From IMG/VR virus record IMGVR_UViG_3300045996_000470, positions 34,667 through 98,666 of that record: 64,000 nucleotides of DNA. One strand, given 5' to 3'. Under the pieces are notes generated by a model. It had not been told where the DNA came from. It did no database searches and saw nothing but the letters and a program-made list of their open reading frames with translations. Position 1 is the first letter of the stretch. Every line of letters starts with the position of its first letter. This stretch comes from a virus. Taxonomy: Duplodnaviria; Heunggongvirae; Uroviricota; Caudoviricetes. Shown here piece by piece: positions 3,606 to 56,123 of this stretch. Made by a program: the position numbers and the translations under genes.

Positions 3606-3645
3606 AAGGATAGTGCGTAGAAATATATTTAGGAGATAAATTATT

Positions 3646-4263
3646 ATGGGAAATTCAATGGGTCAAACTAGAACATTGTTCACCGAAAGAATGGGACGCT
3701 CTATTCAGGTTAGTGCTGACGGCGCTCCAAAGTACAAAGCAGGTGGTATTACAGTTAACTGGAATGCTATCTATGCATGTCCTGCTGATACAGGTACTTA
3801 CTACGGTAAAACTGTAGCTAATGGACAGGTGGAATTTGAAGATGGAGTCGTTGTTAAGGTAGGAGAAAAGGCTATTAGATATGGTAGTATTATGGTTTAT
3901 GATTCTGCTCTTGACTTAGACCCAACACTTACAACTGGTGCAGGTGTTCCTCAGGGAGCATACAGACTAGCCCTAACGGGCGATGCTGCACTTCTAGCTA
4001 TAAGAGGAAATGGTTTCATTGTAAATGAAACTGTGCTTGAAGAAGATACTTATAGCAATCACATCGGCGTCATGGACGGCGGTAGAATGTGGAGAGCTAG
4101 AATTGTTAAGAGTGATGTCACACAAGCTGATACAACTTGGGTAGCAGGAGACCAAGCAGAAGCAGCCGTTGCCGCTTACACAAGCGCAACCGCGTCTGTT
4201 CCTCCAACTCTAGCACAGATTGAAGCAGGTTTGCCTCTTGTCGTTTGGGCACGAGACAACTAA
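3646..4263 (+). CDS. hypothetical head protein
   Basis: 205 aa between the protease/scaffold and the capsid candidate; good ribosome-binding site TAGGAGATAAATTATT-ATG. Confidence 0.3.
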   Translation: MGNSMGQTRTLFTERMGRSIQVSADGAPKYKAGGITVNWNAIYACPADTGTYYGKTVANGQVEFEDGVVVKVGEKAIRYGSIMVYDSALDLDPTLTTGAGVPQGAYRLALTGDAALLAIRGNGFIVNETVLEEDTYSNHIGVMDGGRMWRARIVKSDVTQADTTWVAGDQAEAAVAAYTSATASVPPTLAQIEAGLPLVVWARDN

Positions 4264-4282
4264 TTAGGAGAAATAAACTATT

Positions 4283-5428: not shown

Positions 5429-5477
5429 GAATGATGGGTGAGTTAATTCTCACCCTCATATTAATTAAGGAGATATT

Positions 5478-5861
5478 ATGGCAAGAAGAGATGAATTGAT
5501 GGATATTATTAAGTCCGGTGGTGGAGCAATGGTTCGTATTCACGGGCAGAAGAAAATCATCACAATGGACAATATTGAAGAGCTTCCATCTGAAGTTGAC
5601 CTAGCAGAGGGTAATCCTCAGCTAGAAGAAGCAGCCCTACAAAATATAGAATCTCAGATTGAGGTTTTAGAAGAAGCAAAAAGTCGTTTGACTGCTTCTA
5701 TTAAGGGTAAGAAGGATGCAGCTAAAGCTGTGGAATCTAAGGCTGATAAGGCTGAAGAAGCAGCACCAGCAGAGGAGCCAGCACCTGCGGAAGCAGAGGC
5801 AGCGCCGGCTGAGGAAGCAGCACCTGCGGAAGCAGAGGCAGATTCCAAAAAGAAGAAATAA
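5478..5861 (+). CDS. hypothetical protein with Ala/Glu/Pro-rich low-complexity C-terminus
   Basis: 127 aa; C-terminus AAPAEEPAPAEAEAAPAEEAAPAEAEA encoded by an imperfect direct repeat (gcacctgcggaagcagaggca twice, 5781-5840). Confidence 0.4.
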   Translation: MARRDELMDIIKSGGGAMVRIHGQKKIITMDNIEELPSEVDLAEGNPQLEEAALQNIESQIEVLEEAKSRLTASIKGKKDAAKAVESKADKAEEAAPAEEPAPAEAEAAPAEEAAPAEAEADSKKKK

Positions 5862-5868
5862 CTAAACG

Positions 5869-6291
5869 ATGCTAACTAAAACCCAAATCAATGCTGCCAG
5901 TGCTACACTAGATGAGACTGATATTGCAATGATTACTGCGACCATCAGGGGCAGCGACAAATACAAACAGAATCCTGCGTATTATACAGATTTTGTTATA
6001 AAGGTCGAGGACACTGACGGTACTATTCAGGCAAAGCAGATTAATGCTGCTATGACTGAAATAGCAAACTTGGGTATTGGGGTGGTTGAAATTGACCAGA
6101 GGAGAGTAGGAGGGTCAGACGGACTATTCTACTCTCAAATTGCTGAGAGGAACTCTCTCATTGATTATATTATTGGGGTTGTTTATCCTGAATATTATGA
6201 GTCAGTTCAACTTGATGCAAATGGTAATCCTATTTATGGGAACGGGGCTTATGGAGTAGCTCAAAGGGAGCCAGAGGATATATGGGGTTAA
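5869..6291 (+). CDS. hypothetical structural protein
   Basis: 140 aa in the head-tail connector region. Confidence 0.3.
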   Translation: MLTKTQINAASATLDETDIAMITATIRGSDKYKQNPAYYTDFVIKVEDTDGTIQAKQINAAMTEIANLGIGVVEIDQRRVGGSDGLFYSQIAERNSLIDYIIGVVYPEYYESVQLDANGNPIYGNGAYGVAQREPEDIWG

Positions 6292-6656
6292 ATGTAAGTA
6301 AGGCTTTTTTCAAAGCTAACTCTGTCCTAAACCAAAACTTAGGAAAGTTTGATAGCTTGAATATAATTGGCATTAACCAGTCAGGAACTCAGGTTTATTT
6401 GGTTCAGGGAATTACAAAAGGCTTTTATTATAAGGAAGCCAGTGGAGCAGAGGGCGACACTAGGGAAATATTAAATATAGTTCCTGAAAACTCCACGGTA
6501 GAGACTGCTCTCAAGAACGTTGCTCTATTCGAATTAGTAAATTTGGATGGAACATTTATTAGGTTCGAACCTATGAGCAAAAAGCTACCGGAGAGACCTA
6601 GTTTTCAGTGGACGTTTAGCATTAAACCTAATCGAGAAGCTAAGAAAGTTATTTAA
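6282..6656 (+). CDS. hypothetical structural protein
   Basis: 124 aa; overlaps the previous gene by 10 nt. Confidence 0.3.
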   Translation: MGLNVSKAFFKANSVLNQNLGKFDSLNIIGINQSGTQVYLVQGITKGFYYKEASGAEGDTREILNIVPENSTVETALKNVALFELVNLDGTFIRFEPMSKKLPERPSFQWTFSIKPNREAKKVI

Positions 6657-6668
6657 GGAGAAATTATT

Positions 6669-7568
6669 ATGCCAATATTTCAATCAAATGCAGGATTAGA
6701 GAAGCCATTTGGTAGCGAGGTTCAATTAGAGACTCTACCAGAGCTTTATCCGCCTCGTCACTATGCCGCAGGCAATGGAGCCATAATCCTAGAAGATGAT
6801 GCAGCATATGCGATTAGAGAAGCGACTTGGGCAGCTAAGACAAGAACCATTACAGTTGATTTCGGCGCCGATGGAGGCGTAGTAGGATTAAAAGAAACAA
6901 CCACCCCTCTAGCATATAACGCAACTCCTGCTACTATTCAGGCAGCTTTAGAAGCAATGGCGGGACTTGCTCCGGGCGACATTTTAGTTAGCGGTGCAGG
7001 GAGATATTTTGAGTATGCGTTCAGCGGAGCGTTTGCTAACAAAGGAATGAAGAGAATGTATTCTTCTCACGGCTCTATTAATCAGGTGCAGACCGAATCT
7101 AATACTGCGACAGGCGGTAGTAGAACTTATACCTTTAAGGGTGTAACTACTGGGCCTCTAAACTTTGATGCAACTAACGCTACAGTTCAGACAGCTATTC
7201 AAGGGCTTTCTACTGTAGGAGCAGGTAACATTACAGTTTCCGGTCCAGCAAACGCATTGGTATTTACCTTTGCACAGGACTTGAGTGGAGCACAGCCTCT
7301 ATTAACAGTTGACCCTGCGTTATTAACAGGCGGTACTGCGGTTTTGACCACAACAACTGCTGGTTCAGACGGAATTAGAGTTTACTTTGAAACCGTTGTT
7401 ATGGGAGTTTCTCAGAATGCTCAGAGAGCAATCAGACAGGACTACACTGACAGAGCGATTAACAGTGCAGCAGGTGGCAGCGGAACGGATGCGTGGGGCA
7501 AGAAAGCTCCAGCGGATATTGGAAATCCAGCAAGATATAATCCTGATGGTTCTCCAAACCAACAGTAA
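6669..7568 (+). CDS. structural protein carrying two copies of a ~75-aa module that is also found in the tail fibre protein
   Basis: 299 aa; ribosome-binding site TAAGGAGAAATTATT-ATG; internal repeats YNATPATIQAALEAMAGLAPGDILVSG and FDATNATVQTAIQGLSTVGAGNITVSG; homologous to HNATAATIRAALEALPSINPGDVTVGG in the 21742-27726 protein. Confidence 0.4.
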   Translation: MPIFQSNAGLEKPFGSEVQLETLPELYPPRHYAAGNGAIILEDDAAYAIREATWAAKTRTITVDFGADGGVVGLKETTTPLAYNATPATIQAALEAMAGLAPGDILVSGAGRYFEYAFSGAFANKGMKRMYSSHGSINQVQTESNTATGGSRTYTFKGVTTGPLNFDATNATVQTAIQGLSTVGAGNITVSGPANALVFTFAQDLSGAQPLLTVDPALLTGGTAVLTTTTAGSDGIRVYFETVVMGVSQNAQRAIRQDYTDRAINSAAGGSGTDAWGKKAPADIGNPARYNPDGSPNQQ

Positions 7569-7693
7569 TAATGAATTATGAATCTTATTAAAAGTATTCA
7601 GTTGTTTATTAAAGCAAGGGAAGAGGCGATTAGACAGATAGAAATCTCTAAGACCTTTTCCCTTTATTTACAAGAGAAGTTAATTGAGAAGTT

Positions 7694-8218
7694 ATGGCAA
7701 TCCAAGATGGAGACAAAACGTACTTAGGCTCTATAGCCGTTAAAGTTACAACTCCGGAGTTTGCTATTGAGGGTAAAAAGGCGCTTGCAGAATTTCGCAG
7801 GCAGATGAACGTAGCCCACAGAAAAGGAATTGAAGAGGGCAAAGCCATCTTAGAGAAAGTCGTTCGTGACGAAAGGATATTTGATACCGGAAAACTGCTC
7901 AGGTCGGTCTCAAGCATGTGGTTTGTAAAATCTACTGATATCTTTTCTGGAACTGTTCACTTTGCGAATCCCGGAAAAGAGTATGCTTACTTTGTTGAGC
8001 ACGGAAGAGGGCCGGGTAAACCCCCTCCCTTCAGTAAGATGAAGGCATGGGGAGAAAGAAAGGGCATTCCATACGACAAGGTGATGGCTATCAGGAGTAA
8101 GATAGCTAGAGTAGGAACTAAGCCTCATCCGTTCTTTGAGAAAGCTACGGAACAGGTAGTTAACAATTATAATAAGATTGTAGACCGTGCTGTTGATAAG
8201 TATAGGAGCAGAAACTAA
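7694..8218 (+). CDS. hypothetical structural protein (head-tail joining region)
   Basis: 174 aa. Confidence 0.3.
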   Translation: MAIQDGDKTYLGSIAVKVTTPEFAIEGKKALAEFRRQMNVAHRKGIEEGKAILEKVVRDERIFDTGKLLRSVSSMWFVKSTDIFSGTVHFANPGKEYAYFVEHGRGPGKPPPFSKMKAWGERKGIPYDKVMAIRSKIARVGTKPHPFFEKATEQVVNNYNKIVDRAVDKYRSRN

Positions 8219-29799: not shown

Positions 29800-31020
29800 C
29801 TATTCGTCCTCTATGAGTACATCTGAGACCCCACAACGGTTTCGAGCTAGTTCCCAGAGTCCGGAATGTACAACTCCTTGCATTTGAAGGTCATACAGTT
29901 CCTCTAGAACCTCTCCCATCTTAGGGGAAGGCTCCATACCATACTGTATCAGATACTTGCCCGTAACCACTGGCTTAATAGGCTCTTCTTCAATTCTAAG
30001 CCTATCAATCGTCTCAGCAAACCTAGTTGCAAACGCCTTAGCCGTTGGGAAACAGCTTACGACTCTAGCCATTAGCTTCATAGAAATCTTCTGAGAAAGC
30101 TTATGGAAATCATAGTCCGTTTCTAGTCCACCGAAAGGCATATTGTCAAGGATAGCCTCGACATGCTTTCGTACAGGATAGCCGTTTACAGAGTTCACTC
30201 CTAGTTCATCCAAAAGCGTATACTCCGAACCGTATGCAAACATTGTCAGGATAACCGTTAAACGTTCCTCGTACGACAGACCCTCTACATTGAAAACACT
30301 GTTAAACAGTCCGTCTGCAAGGTGTTCATTAAATCTAAAGCTAGGAAATAGTTTTTCCACAATCCCTAGACTTTCAAGCTTAGTAACACCAAACGGAAGG
30401 TTTGGAGACTTCGTAAGAAGCTTTTCCATTTCTCCCCAAATTCTTTCTTTGGGAAGGTCAGACAAATCCGTTTCGTATGCCAGCATTTGCGTACGCGAGT
30501 CTACTTCAAACCCAAACCTAGAAGCAAACTGTGCGCAACGAAGAACTCGAAGAGAATCCTCTTGGAAAGCCTTGTCTGAGACAGCACGAAGGATACCATT
30601 TTGAAGGTCAATAACCCCACCCCACGGGTCAACAAGTTCATCCGTAAGCGGGTCTTTCATAATAGCGTTAATCGTAAAGTCTCGCCTTGAGCAAGCCTCT
30701 TCGAAAGACATATGAGGGTCACCCTCAACAGTAAAACCTTTGTGACCTACGCCCGTTTTCTTTTCACGCCTCGGAAGAGATACGTCAATATCCTGTCCAA
30801 GTTTATAGACAGCAAAGGAAGCACCAACTTCGTCAACCTTACCAAAAGTTCCTAGCACTTCCCGCAGACGTTCAGGCTCAAGACCATAGATTTCTATGTC
30901 AATGTCTTTCGAAGCTATCCCTAGAATCTCGTCGCGTACACATCCACCAACGAGCATAGCTCGACCGCCTGCCTCCCGCACTTGTTCTGCTAGGTCTGTA
31001 ATAAGACTGTTGTGTTTCAT
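29800..31020 (-). CDS. cca: tRNA nucleotidyltransferase (CCA-adding enzyme, class II)
   Basis: 406 aa; head motif GRAMLVGGCVRDEILGIASKDIDIEIYG (GGxVRD...DxD) characteristic of CCA-adding enzymes/poly(A) polymerases; its ATG overlaps the TGA of the upstream minimal-NTase gene (ATGA). Confidence 0.7.
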   Translation of the reverse strand: MKHNSLITDLAEQVREAGGRAMLVGGCVRDEILGIASKDIDIEIYGLEPERLREVLGTFGKVDEVGASFAVYKLGQDIDVSLPRREKKTGVGHKGFTVEGDPHMSFEEACSRRDFTINAIMKDPLTDELVDPWGGVIDLQNGILRAVSDKAFQEDSLRVLRCAQFASRFGFEVDSRTQMLAYETDLSDLPKERIWGEMEKLLTKSPNLPFGVTKLESLGIVEKLFPSFRFNEHLADGLFNSVFNVEGLSYEERLTVILTMFAYGSEYTLLDELGVNSVNGYPVRKHVEAILDNMPFGGLETDYDFHKLSQKISMKLMARVVSCFPTAKAFATRFAETIDRLRIEEEPIKPVVTGKYLIQYGMEPSPKMGEVLEELYDLQMQGVVHSGLWELARNRCGVSDVLIEDE

Positions 31021-31319
31021 ATGCTACCGTGCCTTAAGTGTGAGTAAACTTCCTCAAAGGAATGTAACCACCTATATTCTACTCTCAATCCCTCTATCTC
31101 TACGTGTCCTATGTAATCCTCTAAGCCTACTTCTACTAAATCTGCTTTGCCTATGTCTACTACGAAACAATCCAAATCTGAATCCTTTCTCCATCCACCG
31201 GTAATACGAGAACCAAACAACTTGATGTTATCTTCCGAACAATCCAAAGTTTTTGCTATCTTGCTTTTAATTTGTTTTGGAGAGTACCCATTTAAAGATT
31301 CCATCCTTCTATTGTACAC
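31017..31319 (-). CDS. minimal nucleotidyltransferase (MNT / Pol-beta-like NTase domain protein)
   Basis: 100 aa; motif LFGSRITGGWRKDSDLDCFVV (GS...DxD); translationally coupled (ATGA) to the CCA-adding enzyme gene. Confidence 0.5.
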   Translation of the reverse strand: MYNRRMESLNGYSPKQIKSKIAKTLDCSEDNIKLFGSRITGGWRKDSDLDCFVVDIGKADLVEVGLEDYIGHVEIEGLRVEYRWLHSFEEVYSHLRHGSI

Positions 31320-31524
31320 GATTATAGTCTCTTGTCAAGAACTCTTCAATCGAATCTTGTGACTGCTCAAATTCTTCAAGAGCATCACGCCTAGCTTGCT
31401 TAAGCTGAAGTCTATCCTCTACTGTACGCCTTCTGTTGACTTCTGTGATTAAATACCATAAGACTATAGGAGTTACAACAAAGACTATAAATCCAACGGC
31501 TGTAAAAAATGCTATCTTTCCCAT
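31309..31524 (-). CDS. small membrane protein
   Basis: 71 aa; N-terminal transmembrane helix AFFTAVGFIVFVVTPIVLWYLI. Confidence 0.35.
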   Translation of the reverse strand: MGKIAFFTAVGFIVFVVTPIVLWYLITEVNRRRTVEDRLQLKQARRDALEEFEQSQDSIEEFLTRDYNRVQ

Positions 31525-31556: not shown

Positions 31557-32363
31557 TTATTTACTTGGCAATTGAAGAATTGGACTGTTGTTTCCTTGAC
31601 CAAAGATAAGTGTTCCTTGGTGGGCACTCCACGCCTTTGCCTCCTCGACCCGAAGCTTCTGCATTTCTAGTGCATAAATCTTAGGATTCTCAAAGTTCTG
31701 TGCTTGGATTTTCTTAGTCTCCGTCTCGACAATAGCTGCTGACTGTGCCGCGTCTGCTGCTTCCTTAAGCTTTTGGTTAGCTACAACCTTAGACGCTGCC
31801 AACTCAATGTCGTTGTTTTCAAAGTCTGGTGCTGTCATAAGCTGAACTGATTCTATCTCCTGTCTCAACTGAGTCTCTAGAATTACTTTCAACTTAGTAA
31901 AGATGGCATTCTGAATAGTTCCTTGATTAGCCATTAACGTGTAAGCGTCATACGGTGCTACCGCATTTCTAACTTCTGTGTTGATATGTCCCACAAGAAC
32001 CTTGTTAAATGACTTGTCTCTAGTTGTTTCTTCAACACCAAACTGTGCAATGTGTTCTCTGATAGACGCATCATCGTTTTTTAAGTGATAAGTAACTGCA
32101 ACCTGAAGATTTAGACGAGCGTTATCTTTTGACTGTGCCTGAACCGTGATAGGTTCTGTTGTAATAGACTTCACTGATACAGGATGATATTCACTTCCCA
32201 TAATAAAGATAGTCCACTTTCCCCCGCTTTCCGGACGTATAATTTCCCCCGGAACGTCCCAAATTGTTTCGTACTGGACAGTTCCCTGTTCAGCAGTAAT
32301 CCAACATCCTGTGAAAAACATAGTGCTGACAAGCACTAATCCTAATAGTAGTTTTTGTTTCAT
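31557..32363 (-). CDS. SPFH (band-7/prohibitin-like) domain lipoprotein
   Basis: 268 aa; signal peptide with lipobox LVLVSTMFFTG-C; central region (NARLNLQVAVTYHL...IREHIAQFGVEETT...) and a C-terminal Ala/Gln-rich helix typical of SPFH proteins. Confidence 0.5.
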   Translation of the reverse strand: MKQKLLLGLVLVSTMFFTGCWITAEQGTVQYETIWDVPGEIIRPESGGKWTIFIMGSEYHPVSVKSITTEPITVQAQSKDNARLNLQVAVTYHLKNDDASIREHIAQFGVEETTRDKSFNKVLVGHINTEVRNAVAPYDAYTLMANQGTIQNAIFTKLKVILETQLRQEIESVQLMTAPDFENNDIELAASKVVANQKLKEAADAAQSAAIVETETKKIQAQNFENPKIYALEMQKLRVEEAKAWSAHQGTLIFGQGNNSPILQLPSK

Positions 32364-32368
32364 AATTT

Positions 32369-32647
32369 TTATTTGTAAGTTATAATACAGTCGCCCTTGG
32401 CTCTTTGATTCTGTCCGTTTTTGGAATATTGAATATAACCACTATCAAGAATGTAGTGGTACTCAACATTCGTTTCCTTTAAAATCTCAGTCCCTTGTGA
32501 ATAGCAAGTTATGTCCACCTTAGAGTACTGAGTCACACATCCGACTAAAGAAACTGCTCCCAAACATATCAATGCGATTAGTAATTTTTTCATATTATTT
32601 TTTAGGTATGGCATAACAAGTGCCAGTAAACTTGTGCCTCTTCCCAT
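32369..32647 (-). CDS. small lipoprotein
   Basis: 92 aa; lipobox LVG-C. Confidence 0.35.
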   Translation of the reverse strand: MGRGTSLLALVMPYLKNNMKKLLIALICLGAVSLVGCVTQYSKVDITCYSQGTEILKETNVEYHYILDSGYIQYSKNGQNQRAKGDCIITYK

Positions 32648-32840
32648 CTAATGTATAGTACGTTGTACCTTGATAGCTTTCTACTCCCTGCGCTTCAATA
32701 TCTAAAACCACTTTCTCTCCTGCGTAGCAGACTAATGTAAACTTCTCTTGGGACGCATGGTAACTAAAATAAGTAACCAATAGGGAAATTGCTAACACTA
32801 TTCCCAAGAGGATGCACAATATTTTATAACCCACCGGCAT
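32595..32840 (-). CDS. small membrane protein (overlaps the downstream lipoprotein gene)
   Basis: 81 aa; N-terminal transmembrane helix ILCILLGIVLAISLLVTYF; 53-nt overlap with 32369-32647. Confidence 0.3.
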   Translation of the reverse strand: MPVGYKILCILLGIVLAISLLVTYFSYHASQEKFTLVCYAGEKVVLDIEAQGVESYQGTTYYTLDGKRHKFTGTCYAIPKK

Positions 32841-33045
32841 GTTTTAATTCCTTTATTTCTTTTTTCAATTCAACAATCTCTCTGTCTCTTGCTTTTAAAA
32901 TATTTCTTAAATCGTTTGCAACATCCCTTGCATTCTGCCTGATTCCGTAACACTCTGCTGTTGAGTGCATTGGTAAATCTCTGCCGGTACAAGAAATAAG
33001 AGTGAAACTAATCACTATCCCTAAAACGATTTTTAGCATTTTCAA
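32824..33045 (-). CDS. small lipoprotein with C-terminal coiled coil
   Basis: 73 aa; lipobox TLIS-C; C-terminus DLRNILKARDREIVELKKEIKELK. Confidence 0.35.
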   Translation of the reverse strand: MKMLKIVLGIVISFTLISCTGRDLPMHSTAECYGIRQNARDVANDLRNILKARDREIVELKKEIKELKHAGGL

Positions 33046-33541: not shown

Positions 33542-33783
33542 GGGAGGAAGTATTTTAAGGTGACAAAGAACGCTCCTGCGATTGTAAAGGCTACAGCCCA
33601 TTGAAAAAACAACCGTATCCAGCCTTTGATTCTTTCCCAGCGTGGCTCTTCTGTGCCTTCTACTTCAATGTAATGCTCAAACATAGGTTCGGGGCTATTT
33701 CTAGCCCCTCTCGCCCCCGCAACCACCAACAGTTTATAGATACGTTGGCTATCTATCTGTGTAATCTGACTTACCCTTATCAA
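33538..33783 (-). CDS. small membrane protein
   Basis: 81 aa; C-terminal transmembrane segment WAVAFTIAGAFFVTL. Confidence 0.3.
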   Translation of the reverse strand: MIRVSQITQIDSQRIYKLLVVAGARGARNSPEPMFEHYIEVEGTEEPRWERIKGWIRLFFQWAVAFTIAGAFFVTLKYFLP

Positions 33784-34879
33784 ATAGATAAGTATTAGTC
33801 AGGTACTTCAGAATAACTCGACCTACTTTATGGTCGTATCTTTCCTTAATAGGCTTAATAACAACGCCTTCCATCGGATGCTCTGGACTCAATAGAGATT
33901 CTTTGGAAATCTTCTCAACAGAGTTTATGATATTGTCGTAGTCATAGCTCATGTTGTTAAACGTAGGAACTGTTTCTACTCCGTGCAGTCTGCAAAGAGT
34001 CAAGAACATTTCTTGGTCTGCGTATTTCCCGTCAACCAATAAATCAAATGCTCTGAAACCAATTCCATTCTTGATTCCGTAATTATATTTCTTCTGGACA
34101 ATGCCAAAGACTTCTCCAAAAAGAATTACTTGCTTTGCATCTTGTCCTATTGTTAGAAGTAAATTACGAATAGAAGGCAGTGTCAGAGGATACCAATAAG
34201 TATTCCTCTCCATATCCTTATCCTCAGGTTTCTTCCTACGAAGCCCGTGAGAACCTGCCATAAACTCTCCCTCGATAAGCCCTACTCGGCAGTTAGTTCC
34301 GTGCAGCTTCTCTGTGATTACAACTTCCTCTCCCTCTTCTAGGACATTAGGATAGTTCCTAAGGTTTTCGATAGAAGTGTACTTGACAAATAAGGGATGG
34401 TCTTCCTCTGCATCACCTGCTGTTGCTCTCATTGCAGGTTCATACTTTAGAATGCCTAACAACTCAGCCAAATTATCTCCAAGCTGCAATAAGTTTATAT
34501 CAGTAGAAGCTTTTCCATTAGTGCTCTCACTTACCAATTGACTTACCACATCCCTAGGGATGGTCGTACCAAAGCTAGGCTCACCACGCAGCTTTGCCTG
34601 ACGAACACGAAGCATTGTCTCTCCGTTCTCGTTAGTAACAAACGTACCGTCAGGATTTTTCACTGACTGTAGGTGCTGTTTGATTTCTAGAATATCGGCA
34701 AGCTTCTCTGTAATCAAAGAGTCAGGGGTAATATAAACTACCCTCTCTCCCTCTTTGTAAAGGCCTTTACCGCAAACAATCTGCCATCCGTTAATATCGC
34801 AAATATCTAATCTATCTGCATCAGGATGATTCCTTAAATTTGTAACTTCTGCGACCTGCGCCACTACGTTGCTTGGCAT
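33749..34879 (-). CDS. RNA ligase (Rnl2-like family, KxHGxN motif) with N-terminal tRNA-binding OB (Myf/EMAP-like) domain
   Basis: 376 aa; N-terminus VAEVTNLRNHPDADRLDICDINGWQIVCGKGLYKEGERVVYITPDS matches the tRNA_bind OB fold; nucleotidyltransferase motif I ITEKLHGTNCRV (compare T4 Rnl2 EKIHGTN). Confidence 0.55.
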   Translation of the reverse strand: MPSNVVAQVAEVTNLRNHPDADRLDICDINGWQIVCGKGLYKEGERVVYITPDSLITEKLADILEIKQHLQSVKNPDGTFVTNENGETMLRVRQAKLRGEPSFGTTIPRDVVSQLVSESTNGKASTDINLLQLGDNLAELLGILKYEPAMRATAGDAEEDHPLFVKYTSIENLRNYPNVLEEGEEVVITEKLHGTNCRVGLIEGEFMAGSHGLRRKKPEDKDMERNTYWYPLTLPSIRNLLLTIGQDAKQVILFGEVFGIVQKKYNYGIKNGIGFRAFDLLVDGKYADQEMFLTLCRLHGVETVPTFNNMSYDYDNIINSVEKISKESLLSPEHPMEGVVIKPIKERYDHKVGRVILKYLTNTYLFDKGKSDYTDR

Positions 34880-36782: not shown

Positions 36783-37169
36783 TTAACTAGAAGCTAGAGG
36801 AAACCTATTCTTAATAGTCCTCAAAGCCAAATCCAATGGCGTCTTACCCTCTGGATATTTCTTAGTGTTCCAAGTCGTTGCTCCAATAAGGAAACAAATA
36901 CTCGTAAGACAGTTGCCCGTATCAGGCTCGTGAAACTTAGTCACAGGCACTTTAAGTTTTCTCAACTCGTCGTAAGCTTCCTGCAACTGCGTGTCACTAA
37001 ACGCTTCAAGAAGGATAATCGTCTTATCTTTTCTTGCCCAACGCTGCCACTCAGGGGTATCGTAATACTTCAATGCGTATTCCGTACCTGCGTGGTCACT
37101 CTGGATGCCCTGCTGTCTGCCCGACAAGTGCCTCAATGTAATTGTAATTCTTCTCTGCTCAGTCGTCAT
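36783..37169 (-). CDS. peptidyl-tRNA hydrolase, PTH2-like
   Basis: 128 aa; ITITLRHLSGRQQGIQSDHAG aligns with PTH2 [22 protein letters not shown], and EWQRWARKDKTIILLEAFSDTQLQEAYDELRKLKVPVTKFHEPDTGN...LIG aligns with the PTH2 QW...PKVVVKA...L...GL...IQDAGRT...LGIG region. Confidence 0.5.
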   Translation of the reverse strand: MTTEQRRITITLRHLSGRQQGIQSDHAGTEYALKYYDTPEWQRWARKDKTIILLEAFSDTQLQEAYDELRKLKVPVTKFHEPDTGNCLTSICFLIGATTWNTKKYPEGKTPLDLALRTIKNRFPLASS

Positions 37170-37646: not shown

Positions 37647-38675
37647 TTAATTGGCATCCTCCGAAACCATCTTAAAGACTCTTGTAACTTCTGGACGAAT
37701 TAACTTCCAGATATTATCTGAATAGTCTTTGCCATCTAACATATGAAAAAGAATAGAAGGATACTTATAGTTTTGATAATGCAAAGCATTAGTCTTTCTA
37801 TCACCCAAGTCAATAAAGAAAATCTTTGCTGTCAATTCTATTTCGTTATACTTCTCTTGCAACTCAGTCCTAACTTCTTCTACGAAATCGTAGAACTCGT
37901 CAGGAGTTCCTTCAAGAAGTTCCTCAAGAGTACCGTTCCTCATTGCTTCCCAAACAGTCTTTTCAGAGACGCCTGTAATCAAACGGTGAAGTCTCTTGTA
38001 CTCCTCTAACTTAATCTTGACACGTTCGCCATTAGAATATCTTAGTACAAACCCCTCAAGATTAGGCTCCTCGTAAGAAAGAATCTCTTCTAAAGAGTCA
38101 AAGGAATAAACCTTTGGAGTACGAAACCCGTACATCTTTGCAAGCTTCTTGTAATAAACAGCAGTAAACTCCTGCCCATGCTGCCAAACAGATAACAATA
38201 CTACGTCAGAGAAGTCGTAATTAACTACGACACGGTTCTCAGGATAAATAACTTCAAAGATAAACGTGTATCCTTCAAGCGGTAAGAAATCTCCAAGCAA
38301 CTCCTTTCCTCTCTTAGCTTGGTCTGATACAAATGAACCACGAGTCGCTGTTACCAACTGTCCCTGATACATCACAGCAACAAGCATAGACCCGTCCATC
38401 TTTTCTTCGACTACGAAATCACCTTCTGGCAACTTGCCATCAAGCTGTTCGTAAGAAAAGAACTTCTTAAAAGGACGAGCAACAATATTCCCCTCACCGT
38501 CAGCTATTAAGCCTCGGCAGTTAAGGGTAACATCATTCCAGACCCAAGCAAACTGAGTGTTAGCAGTGTAGTTGTACACCCACAAGTCTAACTCAGGGTG
38601 CTTCTCACGCTTAACCATCTTGTCTGTCAAGGCTTGGTCTAATGCTTCTTGTGTAAATAAATCAGTTAATTTCAT
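37647..38675 (-). CDS. ATP-dependent RNA ligase (Rnl1-like; nucleotidyltransferase motif I KMDGS)
   Basis: 342 aa; motif I VVEEKMDGSMLVAV (compare T4 Rnl1 KEDGSL); size and context fit an RNA ligase rather than the DNA ligase, which is found elsewhere. Confidence 0.45.
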   Translation of the reverse strand: MKLTDLFTQEALDQALTDKMVKREKHPELDLWVYNYTANTQFAWVWNDVTLNCRGLIADGEGNIVARPFKKFFSYEQLDGKLPEGDFVVEEKMDGSMLVAVMYQGQLVTATRGSFVSDQAKRGKELLGDFLPLEGYTFIFEVIYPENRVVVNYDFSDVVLLSVWQHGQEFTAVYYKKLAKMYGFRTPKVYSFDSLEEILSYEEPNLEGFVLRYSNGERVKIKLEEYKRLHRLITGVSEKTVWEAMRNGTLEELLEGTPDEFYDFVEEVRTELQEKYNEIELTAKIFFIDLGDRKTNALHYQNYKYPSILFHMLDGKDYSDNIWKLIRPEVTRVFKMVSEDAN

Positions 38676-41811: not shown

Positions 41812-42037
41812 TGTGTATATACCCCAGTGTATGGTGCGGAGCTAAATAGTTGTACTCTAGTACCCATTTCAATCCCAATATTTCAATCATAGATTCAATA
41901 CAAATTGTTTTATATCTATCTCTTACCTTTTCGTAATCCTTGTGTTCCGGATTCAACTTTTGTAAGACAGTAAAGGCATTGTTCCACGTACTGTTTAACC
42001 TATCTATTCTATCTTTTATTTGTTCTTCATTTTTCAT
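41804..42037 (-). CDS. hypothetical protein
   Basis: 77 aa. Confidence 0.3.
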   Translation of the reverse strand: MKNEEQIKDRIDRLNSTWNNAFTVLQKLNPEHKDYEKVRDRYKTICIESMIEILGLKWVLEYNYLAPHHTLGYIHNE

Positions 42038-42555
42038 GGAAGTAAAATGTTTTTAATCATTTGAATGCCAGTATCCAAGTCCTGCGCCTCCCACCCGACA
42101 CTTTGCGTAATCAGTCCGTGGCGATGGATGTTGCCGTCATTAGTAACTAGTACGCAAGGTTTTCGATAGGCATAGCCCCAAGCAACTTCCATTACTGTAC
42201 CGATAGAGACTCGTTTAACATCTAAAAGATTAAAGAGTATGGCATCAGCCGTCTGGCAATCCCAGTGGTCACGATTAAGAATTTGTGACAGGGGAGTAAC
42301 TGTTTCTCCTTTATGGTGTTCAGGCATCCCTGCCATAGCGTTAAGATATCCTTTCGCCCTCATAGGGGAATAAGCTGTAATATTACTAGGCTTTATTAGC
42401 TTATTCCCTGTTTGTGGGTGAGTCAAGGCGCTGCCGTCCACATCATAGAGGTGAGTAAAGGCTAATTGCTCTTTGGCATATTCTCTCCAATTAGTTGCGC
42501 CATGAAATGTTTGCCCTGAGATTGGGCCTGCTAAGTAAACTTTATAGTATTTCAT
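42034..42555 (-). CDS. nucleoside 2-deoxyribosyltransferase-like protein
   Basis: 173 aa; KVYLAGPISG near the N-terminus and SIGTVMEVAWGYAYRKPCVLV near the C-terminus match the NDT/DNPH1(Rcl) family signature. Confidence 0.6.
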   Translation of the reverse strand: MKYYKVYLAGPISGQTFHGATNWREYAKEQLAFTHLYDVDGSALTHPQTGNKLIKPSNITAYSPMRAKGYLNAMAGMPEHHKGETVTPLSQILNRDHWDCQTADAILFNLLDVKRVSIGTVMEVAWGYAYRKPCVLVTNDGNIHRHGLITQSVGWEAQDLDTGIQMIKNILLP

Positions 42556-43461: not shown

Positions 43462-43698
43462 CTATGCATAGCCTCTAAAAATAGAGGCTGTTAACCATTG
43501 CAATGCGCTTACTATATCTTCATCGCTTGCAGTTTCTAGCCATTCATCTTCCCAAACCCTTAAGTTTTGGTCTCTGAGAATGCTCCAACGGCTCATTCCT
43601 TTAGGGGGACGAGTAGTTAAACCAAATTCGTCCCGCCAATTTTTAATCCTACCTATGACTATTTCTCTCATATTAAAACTCGTGATAAGGGTTACCAA
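43462..43698 (-). CDS. hypothetical protein
   Basis: 78 aa. Confidence 0.3.
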   Translation of the reverse strand: MVTLITSFNMREIVIGRIKNWRDEFGLTTRPPKGMSRWSILRDQNLRVWEDEWLETASDEDIVSALQWLTASIFRGYA

Positions 43699-44575
43699 AC
43701 TGCATCAGAGGGAGTCCCTCTTCTGCCCACAGTTCCCTACACACCTGAGGTCTATCGTCAACAACAAGGTACACAAGGTATTTGTTCTTAATATGCTCCT
43801 CATAAAGCTCTCTTTTGATAATAGAATCCTTCCTAGAATCCCCTGCTTTTCTCATATACAGGTGGTCGTAAGCAATTCCATGTGCTTTCAACCAATTCTC
43901 GGTAGGAGTTCTACCCAAATCTTCCTTACGGCCTGACAGGCAGATAAGAGTTACGTCCTCTCTGTCAGCGTACATCTTAGCGATATCCACCACCGGCAAG
44001 TTAGGGAGGTCTTCGTGACACCTAGTCTCGTCAAATGGTGAACGCCCGTTCATCAGCGCAAGAGTACCATCAAGGTCAAAAATGACTGCCTTCGGTTTAT
44101 CGCCGTAGTAGTAATTGCAATCTGTGTAAAGCTTCTTCGGAGGAAGAAACTCTGCCTTCTGTTTCATAATAACCTTCTTCCAAAAGTCCTTACCTTCTGG
44201 ACGATTGGCACAACGCTCGATACAAACATCTATCGGAACGTCTGAAAAATCCTTTACCTCAAAATCATACTGCTCCCTGTACTTCGGGAACACAAGCGCC
44301 TTCACATTCTTTATGTGAAGCTTGTTGAGATTCGTGTCAGCTACGATAACTGACTGTCCCTTCTCAAGAGCCTTCATAATAAGTTCGTTACGCTTCTCAA
44401 CAACTTTAGATTCCTTCACTCTCTTTTCGTTGTCGCCAACAACAGCACCCATTGATGCACGAATATCATCCTTGCATACGATTACTGTGTTAGGATTAGC
44501 AGACACGTACTCATTAGCCCAAGTAGTTTTGCCTGAGCCTGAAAGTCCGTATGTCATTATCACCTTATTCTTCAT
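43673..44575 (-). CDS. pnk: polynucleotide kinase-phosphatase (T4 Pnk-like: 5'-kinase + 3'-phosphatase)
   Basis: 300 aa (T4 Pnkp is 301 aa); N-terminal P-loop GLSGSGKTTWANEY; C-terminal HAD phosphatase motif I VIFDLDGTLA plus a downstream DDR. Confidence 0.8.
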   Translation of the reverse strand: MKNKVIMTYGLSGSGKTTWANEYVSANPNTVIVCKDDIRASMGAVVGDNEKRVKESKVVEKRNELIMKALEKGQSVIVADTNLNKLHIKNVKALVFPKYREQYDFEVKDFSDVPIDVCIERCANRPEGKDFWKKVIMKQKAEFLPPKKLYTDCNYYYGDKPKAVIFDLDGTLALMNGRSPFDETRCHEDLPNLPVVDIAKMYADREDVTLICLSGRKEDLGRTPTENWLKAHGIAYDHLYMRKAGDSRKDSIIKRELYEEHIKNKYLVYLVVDDRPQVCRELWAEEGLPLMQFGNPYHEF

Positions 44576-49622: not shown

Positions 49623-49891
49623 ACATCGTCCTCAAATAATTCGTATACTGACCTTCGCACCGGCTCTCCCGTTGTTTCAGGGGTTGCCTTTTCCCAATCT
49701 AAGTAGACCGCTTCTGCATTAGGGTTAGCCGCTAGTCTTAATTCTTCTACCCTTAATTCGTTTAGTTTTTCTTCTTCCTCTCTTTGATAGTCCTGCTCTG
49801 TAATCTCTCTCAAAACTACGATACTGCCCCAAATAGCAAGTCCTGACAGTATTAAAAGTACGACAATTTCTAGCCAATAAGCTTTAGCCAT
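49619..49891 (-). CDS. small membrane protein
   Basis: 90 aa; N-terminal transmembrane helix AYWLEIVVLLILSGLAIWGSIVVL. Confidence 0.3.
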   Translation of the reverse strand: MAKAYWLEIVVLLILSGLAIWGSIVVLREITEQDYQREEEEKLNELRVEELRLAANPNAEAVYLDWEKATPETTGEPVRRSVYELFEDDV

Positions 49892-50537
49892 TACTTTTCC
49901 TCAACTCATTTGGTATCCACTCTTTAGTCCAATGCACATCCGTCTGAACGTGATTAGGTCTAACTGCCTTAGCCAAATTTTTTTGGAAATCGTTGTAGTG
50001 ATAACTCATTACGTTACGAATAACTATTCCTTCGTGTCCGCTTGCTATGATGTGGTTGTAAGTGTGTACAAGGAAGTCTAAGTGTTGCTCATAATCAAAG
50101 AGGACAATTCTAGAGTCAATCTCTACGTGTGTTAATCCTAATTCATAACACATGTGCTGTGTCTGTAGTAAGTCAAGGCATTCGTTCTTATCATTCCAAA
50201 TACTAAAAACATAAAAGAAGCTTTTCAAATCTGTGTAATGAATAGAGTGCTTCGCGTACAGATTCTCCCCACAAATTCTCCATCCTCTAGGAATCAGGTG
50301 CTTAATTCCTGCGTGTATCTGTTTAACTACAGACCTAGAAGGGTGGTGAGTAGAGTCCAACGACCTAGCGTGGATGCCATCACGATACATAGAGGTGTTC
50401 TCTCCATCCATCTTGACAGTAACTGCTACTTGCTTTCCATTGAAACACGATTCATCTTCCATTCTCCTGTCGTCATTTTGCAGACCTAGAGAGAAAGGCA
50501 AGTGATATGTTTTAGGATATTTATGTTGATTTTCCAT
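49884..50537 (-). CDS. small RNA-ligase-family protein (Rnl2-like minimal nucleotidyltransferase; motif I KxDGxN)
   Basis: 217 aa; motif I VTVKMDGENTSMY; WRICGENLYAKHS (motif III-like); SGHEGIVIRNV (motif IV-like); FQKNLAKAVRPNH (motif V-like). Confidence 0.4.
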   Translation of the reverse strand: MENQHKYPKTYHLPFSLGLQNDDRRMEDESCFNGKQVAVTVKMDGENTSMYRDGIHARSLDSTHHPSRSVVKQIHAGIKHLIPRGWRICGENLYAKHSIHYTDLKSFFYVFSIWNDKNECLDLLQTQHMCYELGLTHVEIDSRIVLFDYEQHLDFLVHTYNHIIASGHEGIVIRNVMSYHYNDFQKNLAKAVRPNHVQTDVHWTKEWIPNELRKSNG

Positions 50538-51343: not shown

Positions 51344-51566
51344 CCCTCCATCCCTTTTCCTCAGATTTCTTCAGGACTTTCTCAAAAACCTCTATAGTCT
51401 TAAAGAAATTTCTGTACATCAGAATCTCTGGTTGGTCTTTGCGGGGGTCTACCTTCATTACAGCACCCCCGTTTTTATGTGCAGCCATAGCTACCACGGC
51501 TAAGAGTTGTCCCTTTACCAAGATAGCTATGTCTGTCGTTACTGCTATTGTTTCTTCTTCTGCCAT
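51312..51566 (-). CDS. hypothetical protein
   Basis: 84 aa. Confidence 0.3.
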   Translation of the reverse strand: MAEEETIAVTTDIAILVKGQLLAVVAMAAHKNGGAVMKVDPRKDQPEILMYRNFFKTIEVFEKVLKKSEEKGWRVVHQGAPNYG

Positions 51567-52756
51567 TAATCCTGCCTTACAGCCTTAAACTTAGGATGCC
51601 TAGGGATGCCATACTTTGACCTACCGAAAAATTCAATCGTTGCTTGTTTTCCGATAAGGTTTTTCCTATCATTGTAAAGCGCCATCCCTTTCTCGTGACT
51701 GATTCCTTTACCAAGTCCCGGAGCAAAGGTAGTAATCTCTTTACCGTCTCTGTCCACCGTAGGTTTGTCCAACTTACAAATTACCCTACCCAAACGCCCC
51801 TGCTTGTTCAACTCAAAGTCCACAATTTCAAACTCTGCATCCTCGTACAGCTTACACTTAACCAAAGACCAGCTACGTTTATGTTCATAACCCTTATCCA
51901 GAGTTCTAATCATTAACCCTTCGTGTCCCTGTTCAAGAAACTCGTCAGTCTTTTCGGCAATCTTCTCGTCAGTAGCTTCAATCTCAAAGCTAGGGACAAC
52001 AATAACGTTGTCAGACGCAAACTGTTTAAGAAATTCATAGCGCTCCTTGTAATTCTTATCGCTATACGTGTCGTAAAGGTAGTACTTTACCTTCTTAAGT
52101 TGTTCTTCCTCTTCCGGTGTGCGGCTCTCCCTGCGCAACAGCCCACCCAAGTCGTCAAAGGCAAACTCAGAACTATAAAGTTCTCCATCAAGAGGGACAT
52201 CCCCTGTTAGCCCAAGTCTTTCATAAGACTCTCTAAGTTCCTTCTCTACGTGAGGAAGTGTGCCTGTCCTGTCACCCTTACGAGTATAGATTTGTACTTC
52301 GTCCGGAGTTACCTGAATAGGGGCGCGATAGCCGTCATACTTAGGCTGTACGTGAATAATATCGCCCTTAATCTTCATTTTCTCAAGAGTCTTAGAAGAA
52401 CTCTGCTTGCCTAGCGGGTCATATTTATGAGCCAGCATAGGAGTGAGAATTCCTGACCGGAGAACGCCTTTCTTGGCATCCTTTAAGTCTGTTACATATT
52501 GGTCACGGAGTTTCTTTTCTAACTTCGCTTCTGCTTCGGCAACAGCTTGCGTGTATGGTGTGGTAGCATTGGCTTTACCAATGTTCTTTCCTGCGGTAAC
52601 AGGGGTTGACTCAAGTTTCATCTTCATTCCCAAGACGCCTGACTCCCTGTGGATTATCGCCGGTGCTGTCTGGTTCGTTGGGTCACCTTCTACCCAAATC
52701 GTCCAAATAAGGTCTTGTCCCTTGCTGCTTATTTTGTAGATGCTTGTTTTTTTCAT
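51566..52756 (-). CDS. lig: ATP-dependent DNA ligase
   Basis: 396 aa; motif I VQPKYDGYRAPI (KxDGxR); motif IV-V GHEGLMIRTL ... WSLVKCK. Confidence 0.75.
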   Translation of the reverse strand: MKKTSIYKISSKGQDLIWTIWVEGDPTNQTAPAIIHRESGVLGMKMKLESTPVTAGKNIGKANATTPYTQAVAEAEAKLEKKLRDQYVTDLKDAKKGVLRSGILTPMLAHKYDPLGKQSSSKTLEKMKIKGDIIHVQPKYDGYRAPIQVTPDEVQIYTRKGDRTGTLPHVEKELRESYERLGLTGDVPLDGELYSSEFAFDDLGGLLRRESRTPEEEEQLKKVKYYLYDTYSDKNYKERYEFLKQFASDNVIVVPSFEIEATDEKIAEKTDEFLEQGHEGLMIRTLDKGYEHKRSWSLVKCKLYEDAEFEIVDFELNKQGRLGRVICKLDKPTVDRDGKEITTFAPGLGKGISHEKGMALYNDRKNLIGKQATIEFFGRSKYGIPRHPKFKAVRQD

Positions 52757-52880: not shown

Positions 52881-54008
52881 TTACTTGTTGTAATAAAATC
52901 CAGAATCCTTCGCCCATCGCTTAACTATAGTTCTTTCATTTGGTCGGGCTATCCTATTTGCTAGCCCTCTAACCTGATTTACGTTATTCCCCCTAACTTC
53001 AATGGTTAGCTTTTTATTGTCATTCAGTGTTAATGACCAGATAGAAGATTTTCCAGCTATACATTCATTCTTATAAGACAGTACGCAATGCCGCATTGCG
53101 TTTCCTTCTTTTTGAAGCTCTTTTGCCGACTTTATCTGTGTAAATTTCCACAAATTAACTGTATCATCAGAATTCTTCTGAGAGTACTGCCTATCTTTGA
53201 CTGGAGTCCCTTCCCAATTAGCCTCTCCTATTAGTTTCAAACGTCTTAGGTCTTGGTGCCATTGTTCTACTTTTTTAGTTAGAGATTCAATTGTGTGCCC
53301 CTTGCCAATAATAGTAAAATCTGTATCTTCTCGACGCCTATAAACAATGTAATCGACAATATCATCAAGCTGTTCTTTTGATTTAGGTTCTTGGCGAGCA
53401 AAAAATTTTACTACCTCTCTCCAAAACTCCTCTGTTAAATCAAAAGCATTAATTTTTGTTTTGGAGATTCGTAAAGCTTTTCCTGTGTTATTTGATTCAG
53501 TATAAGCTATAGCGTATACAATTGCCTCGTCTATTGGAATTTCATAGTGACAATTCAAAAATGTGTGACATTCTTTTTTTGTAAATAAAGCCTGCCCGTA
53601 TTCCTTATAAAATGAACCGCCCGTTGCAATACAAATATACCAAAGCCTGTAATCTTCTTTGGTAGCAAATCCATAATCAACAGAAGGAACTGAAGAATGA
53701 TACCACTCTCGCCTCGGTGATGGAGTTTCCCAAGCATTAAACATAAACTCGGGAACAGGGTAAAGATGGAAAACGTGACGGACAAATTCAAAACGCTGTT
53801 TATCTCTATGCTTGCTTCTAGTTTTTAGGATAAAAGAATCCTTATCTCTAATAAAGAATCCCTTGTATTCCTTAAAGTCCTCAGACACATCAGGAACAGG
53901 TTCTGCCAGCTTGGCTTTAACTTCTCTAGTCCGTGCAGCAAAATTCTGTTGGAAATTAGCCTCAGCTTGTGCTAATTCTTCATTTTTTAATTTGGTCGCA
54001 CGCCCCAT
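52881..54008 (-). CDS. hypothetical protein (375 aa) with conserved-looking C-terminal NAMRHCVLSY motif
   Basis: ATG at 54008 lies 6 nt after the -10 of promoter copy 9 (the track starts at a GTG at 54023); no fold recognised. Confidence 0.35.
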   Translation of the reverse strand: MGRATKLKNEELAQAEANFQQNFAARTREVKAKLAEPVPDVSEDFKEYKGFFIRDKDSFILKTRSKHRDKQRFEFVRHVFHLYPVPEFMFNAWETPSPRREWYHSSVPSVDYGFATKEDYRLWYICIATGGSFYKEYGQALFTKKECHTFLNCHYEIPIDEAIVYAIAYTESNNTGKALRISKTKINAFDLTEEFWREVVKFFARQEPKSKEQLDDIVDYIVYRRREDTDFTIIGKGHTIESLTKKVEQWHQDLRRLKLIGEANWEGTPVKDRQYSQKNSDDTVNLWKFTQIKSAKELQKEGNAMRHCVLSYKNECIAGKSSIWSLTLNDNKKLTIEVRGNNVNQVRGLANRIARPNERTIVKRWAKDSGFYYNK

Positions 54009-54014
54009 AAAAGT

Positions 54015-54042
54015 ATGATACACCAGTCCTTGTAAAAGTCAA
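54015..54042 (-). promoter_or_regulatory. leaderless sigma70-type promoter (copy 9)
   Basis: - strand TTGACT, 16 nt, TATCAT, 6 nt, ATG (54008). Confidence 0.5.
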
Positions 54043-55442: not shown

Positions 55443-56123
55443 TTAGTTAACTTTACGTGCATTGGCATAATGTTTCCAAATCATTAAATCGTATTCCGTA
55501 GGATTCACTCCTATTTTATCACAATGGTCAAGATAAATCTTCTCGTAATGGTCGTACTGCTTTCTAGAAGAAGGAGTATTCTTAGGTGCTTCGTCGTGCC
55601 CTAAATCGTCCCTAATAAATTTCATCAAATGCACATCAAGCATAGCAACCCTAACATATTTTCTCGTCCACGCCAAAAAACAACTAGCAGATTTCCTACC
55701 GATTCCGTGAATCGCCATAAGCTGTGCCATCGAACAACCTCGGAGATTGATTCCAGAATTAGTAACCTCTCTAAATGCCCTAGCCAAGCGAGTTTGACAA
55801 CCAAAGCCGTACGCCTTTAATGCACTTGGTAAATCATTATATTGTCGTACCTCGTAACGGACTGCAACGGCTGGGTCTATTATTCCAAAGTTGTCATATC
55901 TTATAGGGTTATGACGATGATATGCAAATTGTCCGTGTACTCCCGGTCTGTCATACAATTTCACCTTATTGAAAGGGGTACTTCCAGCGCCCTGAAGAAA
56001 CGCGTCCAATTGTCTAGCAGTAGTGGCGGCATTCTTTCCTGCTACGGCAATAAGAAAAAGGATTAATTCCTCTAACTCTTCGTCAGTTCTATTATAATTG
56101 ATTATATTATTAGGGTCTACCAT
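55443..56123 (-). CDS. HhH-GPD superfamily DNA glycosylase
   Basis: 226 aa; helix-hairpin-helix LMAIHGIGRKSASCFLAW followed by the catalytic Asp context VRVAMLDVHL. Confidence 0.5.
   Translation of the reverse strand: MVDPNNIINYNRTDEELEELILFLIAVAGKNAATTARQLDAFLQGAGSTPFNKVKLYDRPGVHGQFAYHRHNPIRYDNFGIIDPAVAVRYEVRQYNDLPSALKAYGFGCQTRLARAFREVTNSGINLRGCSMAQLMAIHGIGRKSASCFLAWTRKYVRVAMLDVHLMKFIRDDLGHDEAPKNTPSSRKQYDHYEKIYLDHCDKIGVNPTEYDLMIWKHYANARKVN

Follow-up and report, generated by a model that had tools for sequence, protein, structure and literature searches.

We analysed a 64-kb stretch of a ~121-kb phage genome (IMG/VR record IMGVR_UViG_3300045996_000470), called the window below, in which two adjoining genes on the minus strand encode a minimal Polβ-type nucleotidyltransferase (the small NTase) and a tRNA nucleotidyltransferase of the CCA-adding type (the CCA enzyme). 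Since both genes have conserved homologues, the two open reading frames (ORFs) are real, and more than chance ORFs. The pair and the signals at its borders are the following.

31017..31304, minus strand: minimal Polβ-type nucleotidyltransferase, 95 aa (ATG at 31304; Pfam NTP_transf_2, JGI call, AlphaFold2 [AF2] model)
29800..31020, minus strand: class II tRNA nucleotidyltransferase of the CCA-adding type, 406 aa, without an HD domain (Pfam, phrog_2244, NCBIfam, and PDB matches)
31017..31020, minus strand: ATGA stop/start overlap of the two genes (direct sequence read)
29778..29801, minus strand: terminator-like hairpin GGGGCU-ACA-AGCCCC followed by U6 (RNA fold, -13.6 kcal/mol, z = -2.0; direct read)
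31311..31349, minus strand: two overlapping sigma-70-like promoter matches, TTGACA-16-TACAAT (11/12) and TTGAAG-17-TATAAT (10/12)

A sequence-only reading of this DNA had described a 100-aa NTase with the motif FGSRITGGWRKDSDLD, whose stop codon overlaps the start of the CCA-enzyme gene. Direct reading confirmed the motif and also the overlap, in which 4 nt are shared between the NTase stop (TGA, 31019..31017) and the CCA-enzyme start (ATG, 31020..31018); the two genes are probably translationally coupled. The length had to be revised. The longest ORF does give 100 aa, from a GTG at 31319, while the JGI gene call (P0001) has 95 aa, from the ATG at 31304. The GTG start would create an 11-nt overlap with the upstream gene, and the relatives that lack an N-terminal extension start at an aligned M-x-S-L-N-G motif, which the extended relatives hold internally. 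For these reasons we prefer the shorter form, and the true start is almost certainly the ATG at 31304, with a product of 95 aa.

The hairpin starts within the stop codon of the CCA-enzyme gene and divides the pair from the exonuclease gene that lies beyond it. A consensus scan did not list it, possibly since the stem can extend into the U-run. The sigma-70-like sequences sit just upstream of the NTase ATG and are consensus matches alone, in a region where 27 such matches were found against 19.8 expected, which is barely above chance; we treat them as a lead, not as evidence. The base composition of the region gave no sign of recent acquisition, and at the DNA level the region matched none of the 50,697 phage records searched. 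The two genes form a cassette, transcribed together, that closes a string of membrane-protein genes at its 3' end.

A phage-only family of minimal nucleotidyltransferases

In the 95-aa numbering, the GSX10DXD signature of the small NTase consists of G31-S32, 10 residues, and D43-L-D45, and a third acidic residue is found at E76; the catalytic Asp pair, whose absence would have spoken against the sequence-only reading, is thus present. The sequence-only reading had proposed a profile search against NTP_transf_2 and MntA, and the outcome was split: Pfam NTP_transf_2 (PF01909) was matched with 25 bits against a cutoff of 21, a marginal pass, while the curated NCBIfam MntA equivalog NF047752 failed, with 16.1 bits against a cutoff of 60. 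NTP_transf_2 was matched by all of the 40 family members collected below (best E = 6.6e-11). F-G-S-R and S-D-L-D do not vary among these members, the third acidic residue (E/D) is conserved to at least 90%, and two motifs outside the catalytic core, SLNG...K at the N terminus and SWLxxS[IV] at the C terminus, mark the family. The AF2 model of the NTase, made with the family alignment, has a pLDDT of 86.7 and a pTM of 0.78 and shows a bare NTase core (a1-b1-a2-b2-a3-b3-b4-a4). The catalytic residues of this minimal Polβ NTase are thus intact, and from its sequence and model the 95-aa protein is predicted to be competent.

That the NTase ORF is spurious, or a degenerate and non-catalytic remnant, is very improbable and was largely refuted. 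The marginal Pfam score would be in keeping with it, as would the degenerate DxD motifs of a few distant representatives; the invariance of G-S-R and S-D-L-D and the conservation of the third carboxylate over 40 members, the confident AF2 model, the matches of every member to NTP_transf_2, and the retention of every catalytic residue by the copy in the window all stand against it. In the distant representatives concerned (P0015, P0022, and P0012) the motifs read DLG, NLG, and ELE, the last of these combined with an Asn in place of the third carboxylate. Some members may thus lack catalytic activity, or their sequences may contain errors.

The first database search returned a sole relative, P0002, 39% identical to the NTase. 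HMMER, run exhaustively over 1.84 billion representatives, gave 26 matches, the genuine ones of ~81-95 aa and some of them N-terminally extended. Two long, multi-stretch matches (P0004 and P0011) turned out on inspection to be spurious, low-complexity tandem-repeat proteins and were rejected; P0003, P0023, and P0026 show the same pattern. A profile search of a 5.8-billion-protein database gave ~41 clusters at 68 bits or more, against 50 bits or less for generic cellular minimal nucleotidyltransferases (MNTs). The clusters all come from JGI, ENA, or Logan metagenomes and none from NCBI or UniRef. Searches of the phage collection by tblastn, with the NTase and with a typical member of its family, gave no cultured-phage relative, a scan of the genome collection with two narrow NTase peptide patterns gave no match, and a DNA-pattern scan of viral contigs returned only the two known contigs and an unrelated high-GC MNT (L032). 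The NTase belongs to a discrete, phage-only family, an offshoot of the MNT clade without a fixed partner gene. N-terminal extensions were seen in P0005, P0038, P0041, P0042, L008 949..1386, P0021, and P0013, and the types of extension among the members comprise a basic four-Cys Zn ribbon (pI ~9), a SEC-C motif, and a Walker-A-like GSGKS, the last recognised by eye.

By sequence profile, the nearest solved proteins belong to the MNT clade (HI0073, 1.4e-05; 2rff; a Cmr1-MntA fusion; MntA antitoxins), with terminal uridylyltransferases (TUTases) slightly weaker, and all these alignments span the GS...DxD segment only. The top Foldseek match of the NTase model is 8xeh_E, the MNT chain of a HEPN-MNT complex (prob 0.97, E = 0.019), and the fold neighbours further include the small-molecule NTases ANT(4'), ANT(9), and Tam41 and the signal-making HalB. 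The fold search does not discriminate MNT antitoxins from terminal RNA NTases, and neither do net charge and pI, the family core, the cellular MNTs, and the CCA enzyme all being acidic.

The CCA-type enzyme

In Pfam, the 406-aa protein matched the PolyA_pol head (PF01743; 64.4 bits against a cutoff of 23) and PolyA_pol_RNAbd (25.6 bits against 22) and gave no HD domain; its PHROG match is phrog_2244, 'tRNA nucleotidyltransferase' (E = 1.5e-59). It has the motifs GGCVRD, DIDIE (within KDIDIEI), RRDFTINA, and EDSLRVLR, of which GGCVRD and DIDIE are in register with solved CCA enzymes, while RRDFTINA (motif B) and EDSLRVLR (motif D) aligned with the same motifs of 6ibp. The top NCBIfam models are those of CCA enzymes (142, 126, and 119 bits, with PcnB at 107 bits), the protein lying below all the CCA and PcnB equivalog cutoffs (290-606 bits), and the top PDB matches are the CCA-adding enzymes 6ibp, 3h37, and 1miv. 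Near-full-length alignments were obtained with 3h37 (residues 21-377) and NF009814 (residues 12-376), and alignment over the full length was confined to CCA-type models and structures. The assignment to the class II CCA type made in the sequence-only reading was therefore upheld, and the poly(A)-polymerase alternative it had named as a counterargument appears the less likely one: by models and by alignment the protein is CCA-enzyme-like, not PcnB-like.

CC-adding enzymes lack the flexible loop that joins motifs A and B. In a pairwise alignment the 406-aa protein keeps this loop, at a length comparable to that of the Planococcus halocryophilus CCA enzyme, which may bear on its capacity for CCA addition. 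From the strong homology we infer that the protein rebuilds or matures tRNA 3'-CCA ends. Its head, neck, and body/tail organisation and its motifs A, B, and D are those of phage-encoded class II CCA enzymes, the missing HD domain is as in the Bacillus/Thermotoga-type enzymes, and the gene lies in a phage RNA-repair setting, as described for phage CCA enzymes (PMC7824862); it differs from them in its coupling to a minimal NTase, seen in no other locus examined.

Relatives of the 406-aa protein occur in 462 records of the phage collection, with an identity of at most 46% over the aligned segment, and of at most ~27% for the matches that cover at least 80% of the protein. Since phage CCA enzymes are this common and have already been discussed as part of phage RNA repair (PMC7824862), the CCA half of the finding is of an already known kind, ordinary for a large phage. 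Overexpression of PcnA, itself a class II CCA enzyme, relieves the toxicity of MenT3, a toxin that modifies tRNA ends (PMC11541572), and by this precedent a role of the phage enzyme in tRNA repair or against toxins is plausible. Around a 44%-identical CCA homologue in another virus record (IMGVR_UViG_3300011013_003468; L001, 3000..10000), 7 kb contain 2 ORFs of at least 60 aa under code 11, and that phage probably uses a recoded stop codon.

Gene neighbourhoods in the window and in relatives

The genes of the window nearest to the pair, and those for RNA and DNA end repair, are listed below.

28796..29752, minus strand: DEDDh (RNase T/DnaQ-type) 3'-5' exonuclease, 318 aa (RNase_T, 71 bits; phrog_192)
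31309..31524, minus strand: 71-aa single-pass membrane protein with a weak holin-like match, directly upstream of the NTase gene
31557..32363, minus strand: SPFH/Band-7 lipoprotein (Band_7, 44.2 bits; phrog_200, 'lipoprotein')
33749..34879, minus strand: ATP-dependent, DRB0094-family RNA ligase that starts with a PHA02142 OB domain (TIGR02306, 160.8 bits against 151.15)
37647..38675, minus strand: T4 Rnl1-type RNA ligase (PF09511, 56.4 bits against a cutoff of 28.3)
43673..44575, minus strand: T4-type polynucleotide kinase-phosphatase, Pnkp (HAD_PNKP, 142.6 bits; AAA_33, 56.1 bits)
49884..50537, minus strand: third RNA ligase, 217 aa (PF09414 RNA_ligase, 90.8 bits against a cutoff of 27)
51566..52756, minus strand: ATP-dependent DNA ligase

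Three RNA ligases, a Pnkp, and a DNA ligase within 20 kb are an unusually full repair kit for a genome of ~121 kb. The ligase of the DRB0094 type also matched Pfam RNA_ligase (89.4 bits) and PHA02142 (35.6 bits). RlaP was found in none of the window proteins scanned. HEPN domains (PF01934/DUF86 or PF05168) gave no match in the scanned window proteins, in the precomputed Pfam calls of nine further loci, or in the other scanned neighbours, loci L007-L019 having been scanned in part. The pair had been placed at the end of an SPFH/lipoprotein gene string and just before a 'SLOG-exonuclease' gene. The former holds, with the Band_7 match and the lipoprotein character upstream; of the latter the exonuclease stands and the SLOG part is weak, the N-terminal match to YAcAr being below threshold (16.5 bits against a cutoff of 28.2). 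The other basis of the N-terminal assignment is a match to a PHROG 'GTP-binding domain'. Together with the CCA enzyme, this exonuclease would make a fitting pair to trim tRNA 3' ends and build them up again.

On the coding strand, the SPFH lipoprotein is preceded by small predicted lipoproteins and membrane proteins (31557..33045, minus strand), one of which has a weak Cor-like superinfection-exclusion match (E = 0.0076). Between the two nearest RNA ligases lies a 128-aa ORF (36783..37169, minus strand) with a weak PTH2 (peptidyl-tRNA hydrolase) match, 17.8 bits against 23; the PTH2 beside the family member of L014 is a solid one. The accessory genes of the window (42034..42555, 58576..58929, 55443..56123, and 52881..54023, all on the minus strand) encode nucleoside 2-deoxyribosyltransferase-like, dCMP/cytidine deaminase, weakly Ogg-HhH glycosylase-like, and PcfJ-like proteins, and a thioredoxin is found among the small ORFs. 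On the plus strand, a 1994-aa tail-fibre-like protein (21742..27726) matches in its C-terminal part (26002..27726) an ORF of locus L007 (3442..4938) by BLASTP; that ORF looks by eye as if it contained an intein/Hint domain, which suggests a putative Hint-type autoprocessing domain at the C terminus of this structural protein.

We then examined the neighbourhoods of the family in other phages. Coupling of an NTase gene to a CCA-enzyme gene was found in none of the related loci inspected: the gene of the 39%-identical relative P0002 is followed by a small membrane protein gene, not by a CCA enzyme, and at two viral loci checked no small NTase lies upstream of the CCA relatives. A cluster of neighbours from 11 loci, obtained by BLASTP, was rejected as a partner, being an antisense ORF of the NTase gene itself.

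RNA-repair or tRNA genes lie within ~7 kb of a family member in 6 of 12 independent lineages, this window included, a figure set against a rough expectation of up to ~25% with no proper background control; the enrichment is suggestive. In L006/L010, the NTase gene heads a same-strand array with genes for an Rnl1-type ligase, a metallophosphatase, and an AAA_33 kinase. A T4-type Pnkp gene lies 0.8 kb from the family member in L022, and a PolyA_pol-type enzyme and a 2H phosphoesterase lie ~4.2 kb from it in L024; L014 has PTH2 and glutamyl-tRNA synthetase (GluRS) genes near its family member, and L025 has a class I aminoacyl-tRNA synthetase gene at 0.3 kb. Taking ligase and end-healing genes only, these are adjacent in L006, within 0.8-7 kb in the window, L022, and L024, and absent within reach in six lineages, again with no background control. 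In those six lineages, the family member is surrounded by anonymous small ORFs, radical-SAM genes, or recombination genes.

Several of these loci have features of their own. On the virus-like contig of L014 (JACCEA012289556.1, 64.7 kb; 1957..7919), the family member stands in an island of translation and nucleotide-metabolism genes, which encode PPK2, a MazG-like protein, PTH2, a GIY-YIG endonuclease, and GluRS. The synthetase of L025 (171..3581; 1136 aa, tRNA-synt_1 and Anticodon_1) lies two genes upstream of the family member on a phage-like contig. The L013 contig, which also holds a family member, has a 125-aa ORF (1491..1868) that resembles ribosomal protein L7/L12 by eye and a KxDGS ligase-like ORF (2088..2447) with no Pfam match.

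Candidate roles of the small nucleotidyltransferase

The non-structural arm of the phage carries an unusually full RNA-repair kit, and the explanation we favour is that the NTase would be an accessory of a phage programme against the damage that host ribotoxins do to tRNA and RNA. Where RNA 3' ends are damaged, it would attach one or a few nucleotides, much as RlaP does, and, having no substrate-binding domain, it would need a partner in trans, which here may be the coupled CCA enzyme. Action on an RNA 3' end is our tentative choice, held at less than even odds; modification of a HEPN-type RNase in the manner of MntA appears doubtful, and action on a small molecule or nucleotide signal, or some other activity altogether, appears unlikely in either case. 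What tips the balance slightly towards the RNA-end role is the conservation of the non-catalytic surfaces, the basic Zn-ribbon extensions of some members, the place of the NTase gene in the L006 operon, and the lack of RlaP among the window proteins scanned. Conservation of the non-catalytic N- and C-terminal motifs across diverse phages fits a universal substrate.

RlaP, the RNA ligase-associating Polβ NTase of phage RNA repair, adds 1-2 nucleoside monophosphates to the 3'-OH of RNA. Like RlaP (PF10127; T4 NrdC.11, PfRlaP), the protein studied here is a Polβ NTase of large phages, encoded in some lineages near RNA ligases and end-healing enzymes, with a family member in L006 at the operon position expected for RlaP, and it is a candidate for the same job, the restoring of lost 3' nucleotides. 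It differs in that the family core, of ~85 aa, is without the C-terminal helical domain that forms the RNA cleft of RlaP. Identity with RlaP was rejected: the NTase had no match to PF10127 at E <= 1 (1 of the 40 family members gave one, at E = 0.11), and the 95-aa core model has no C-terminal helical domain. A precedent for NTases in phage RNA repair exists (PMC7824862; PMC12776372). The likeness to non-canonical terminal RNA nucleotidyltransferases (Tailor, TUT4/7, GLD-2, and CutA) lies in a near-identical local motif (FGSRITG......SDLD in Tailor), and the palm core alone is shared: these enzymes exceed 300 aa and have RNA-binding modules as well as a PAP-associated or nucleotide-recognition domain.

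A number of observations weigh against action on RNA ends in concert with the CCA enzyme. We know of no minimal NTase of ~85 aa that acts on RNA; the nearest characterised proteins by profile are MNT antitoxins, which modify proteins; and the family core is acidic (median pI 4.8), with no RNA-binding domain. The NTase-CCA pairing occurs only on this phage's own contigs (L003 and L004), and an all-against-all BLASTP of neighbours across lineages yielded no recurrent partner family. Half of the 12 lineages have no RNA-repair gene within reach, and the other half are to be read against the loose expectation given above. ATGA is, besides, the commonest junction type on the minus strand (12 of 71 junctions), and since it is routine in this compact genome, the overlap points to co-transcription and coupling, not to a special functional bond. 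The earlier proposal that NTase and CCA enzyme together neutralise toxins was therefore not borne out, as it rests on one adjacency, joined by a routine overlap and found in no related locus.

MntA poly-AMPylates a Tyr of the RX4HXY motif of HepT, and an orphan MntA-like NTase could in the same way AMPylate and silence host HEPN RNases (HepT-type toxins, anticodon nucleases) while the CCA enzyme separately mends tRNA ends. We consider this explanation rather improbable. The MntA signature, GSX10DXD with a third metal-binding Asp (PMC7641770), is reproduced exactly by the NTase, in its spacing and with a third carboxylate, though it is also common to Tailor-type TUTases and hence non-discriminating. 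The NTase further shares with the MNT antitoxins (Shewanella oneidensis MntA, HI0073) the minimal Polβ fold of ~80-150 aa (PF01909) and the acidity of cellular MNTs; these antitoxins are its closest solved relatives by profile, and the MNT chain 8xeh_E is its top fold match. Weak PADLOC PDC-S09 matches (E ~1e-3) point the same way, and nearness to Rnl and Pnkp genes would equally be expected of an inhibitor of anticodon nucleases. Against it stand the low score with the MntA equivalog and the lack of an adjacent HEPN toxin gene in the window or the related loci inspected, and on these grounds the claim that the small NTase is an MntA-family antitoxin was not sustained. The family is phage-only, has its own SLNG...K and SWLxxS[IV] motifs, and is clearly apart from the cellular MNTs, so that it does not look like a recent capture from a host toxin-antitoxin module. 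Its non-catalytic surfaces are strongly conserved across phages, a poor fit with diverse, fast-evolving toxins, and in MntA-HepT the toxin helps to build the ATP site, which implies cognate specificity (PMC7641770). No report of phage-borne counter-defence of the MntA type was found in the literature searched. A role as an antitoxin mimic is neither shown nor refuted.

Somewhat less improbable is that the pairing is incidental, the CCA enzyme serving housekeeping maturation of CCA-less phage or host tRNAs, or their turnover, and the NTase being an unrelated accessory that acts on a small molecule, a signal, or a protein. The abundance of CCA-type genes in large phages (the 462 records above) agrees with this explanation, and so do the non-conserved adjacency, the want of a recurrent neighbour family, and the use of ATGA as the default junction of the genome. 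The neighbours of family members are often anonymous small ORFs or genes for radical-SAM proteins or nucleotide metabolism (L015, L020, L021, L023, L027, and L028), and ANT(4'), ANT(9), Tam41, and HalB are among the fold neighbours. Less easily reconciled with it are the absence of any tRNA gene from the 64-kb window, the RNA-repair or tRNA genes near the family member in half of the lineages, and the operon-like array of NTase, ligase, phosphatase, and kinase genes in L006.

CCA enzymes and RNA-repair kits of phages are already known; what is new is a discrete family of stand-alone minimal NTases restricted to phages, on which literature searches for phage CCA enzymes, MntA, and minimal NTases gave no report. 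To our knowledge, cellular proteins of this size and with this motif are nearly always one half of a HEPN-MNT toxin-antitoxin pair. It is possible, if far from likely, that the family is a new class of counter-defence, either a broad-spectrum MntA-like inactivator of HEPN proteins or the smallest RNA-end NTase, one that uses the tRNA-binding body of a partner. In the former case it would be the first virus-borne enzymatic antitoxin mimic for type VII systems, and in the latter the NTase would rely on its partner, for instance the coupled CCA enzyme, for tRNA binding when it mends tRNA damaged by ribotoxins. The 95-aa protein is tiny and easily expressed, and so is a simple biochemical target. 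Its substrate would show either antitoxin chemistry turned on host RNases or a bare NTase core serving RNA repair, and either outcome would widen the known range of means by which phages counter attacks on translation.

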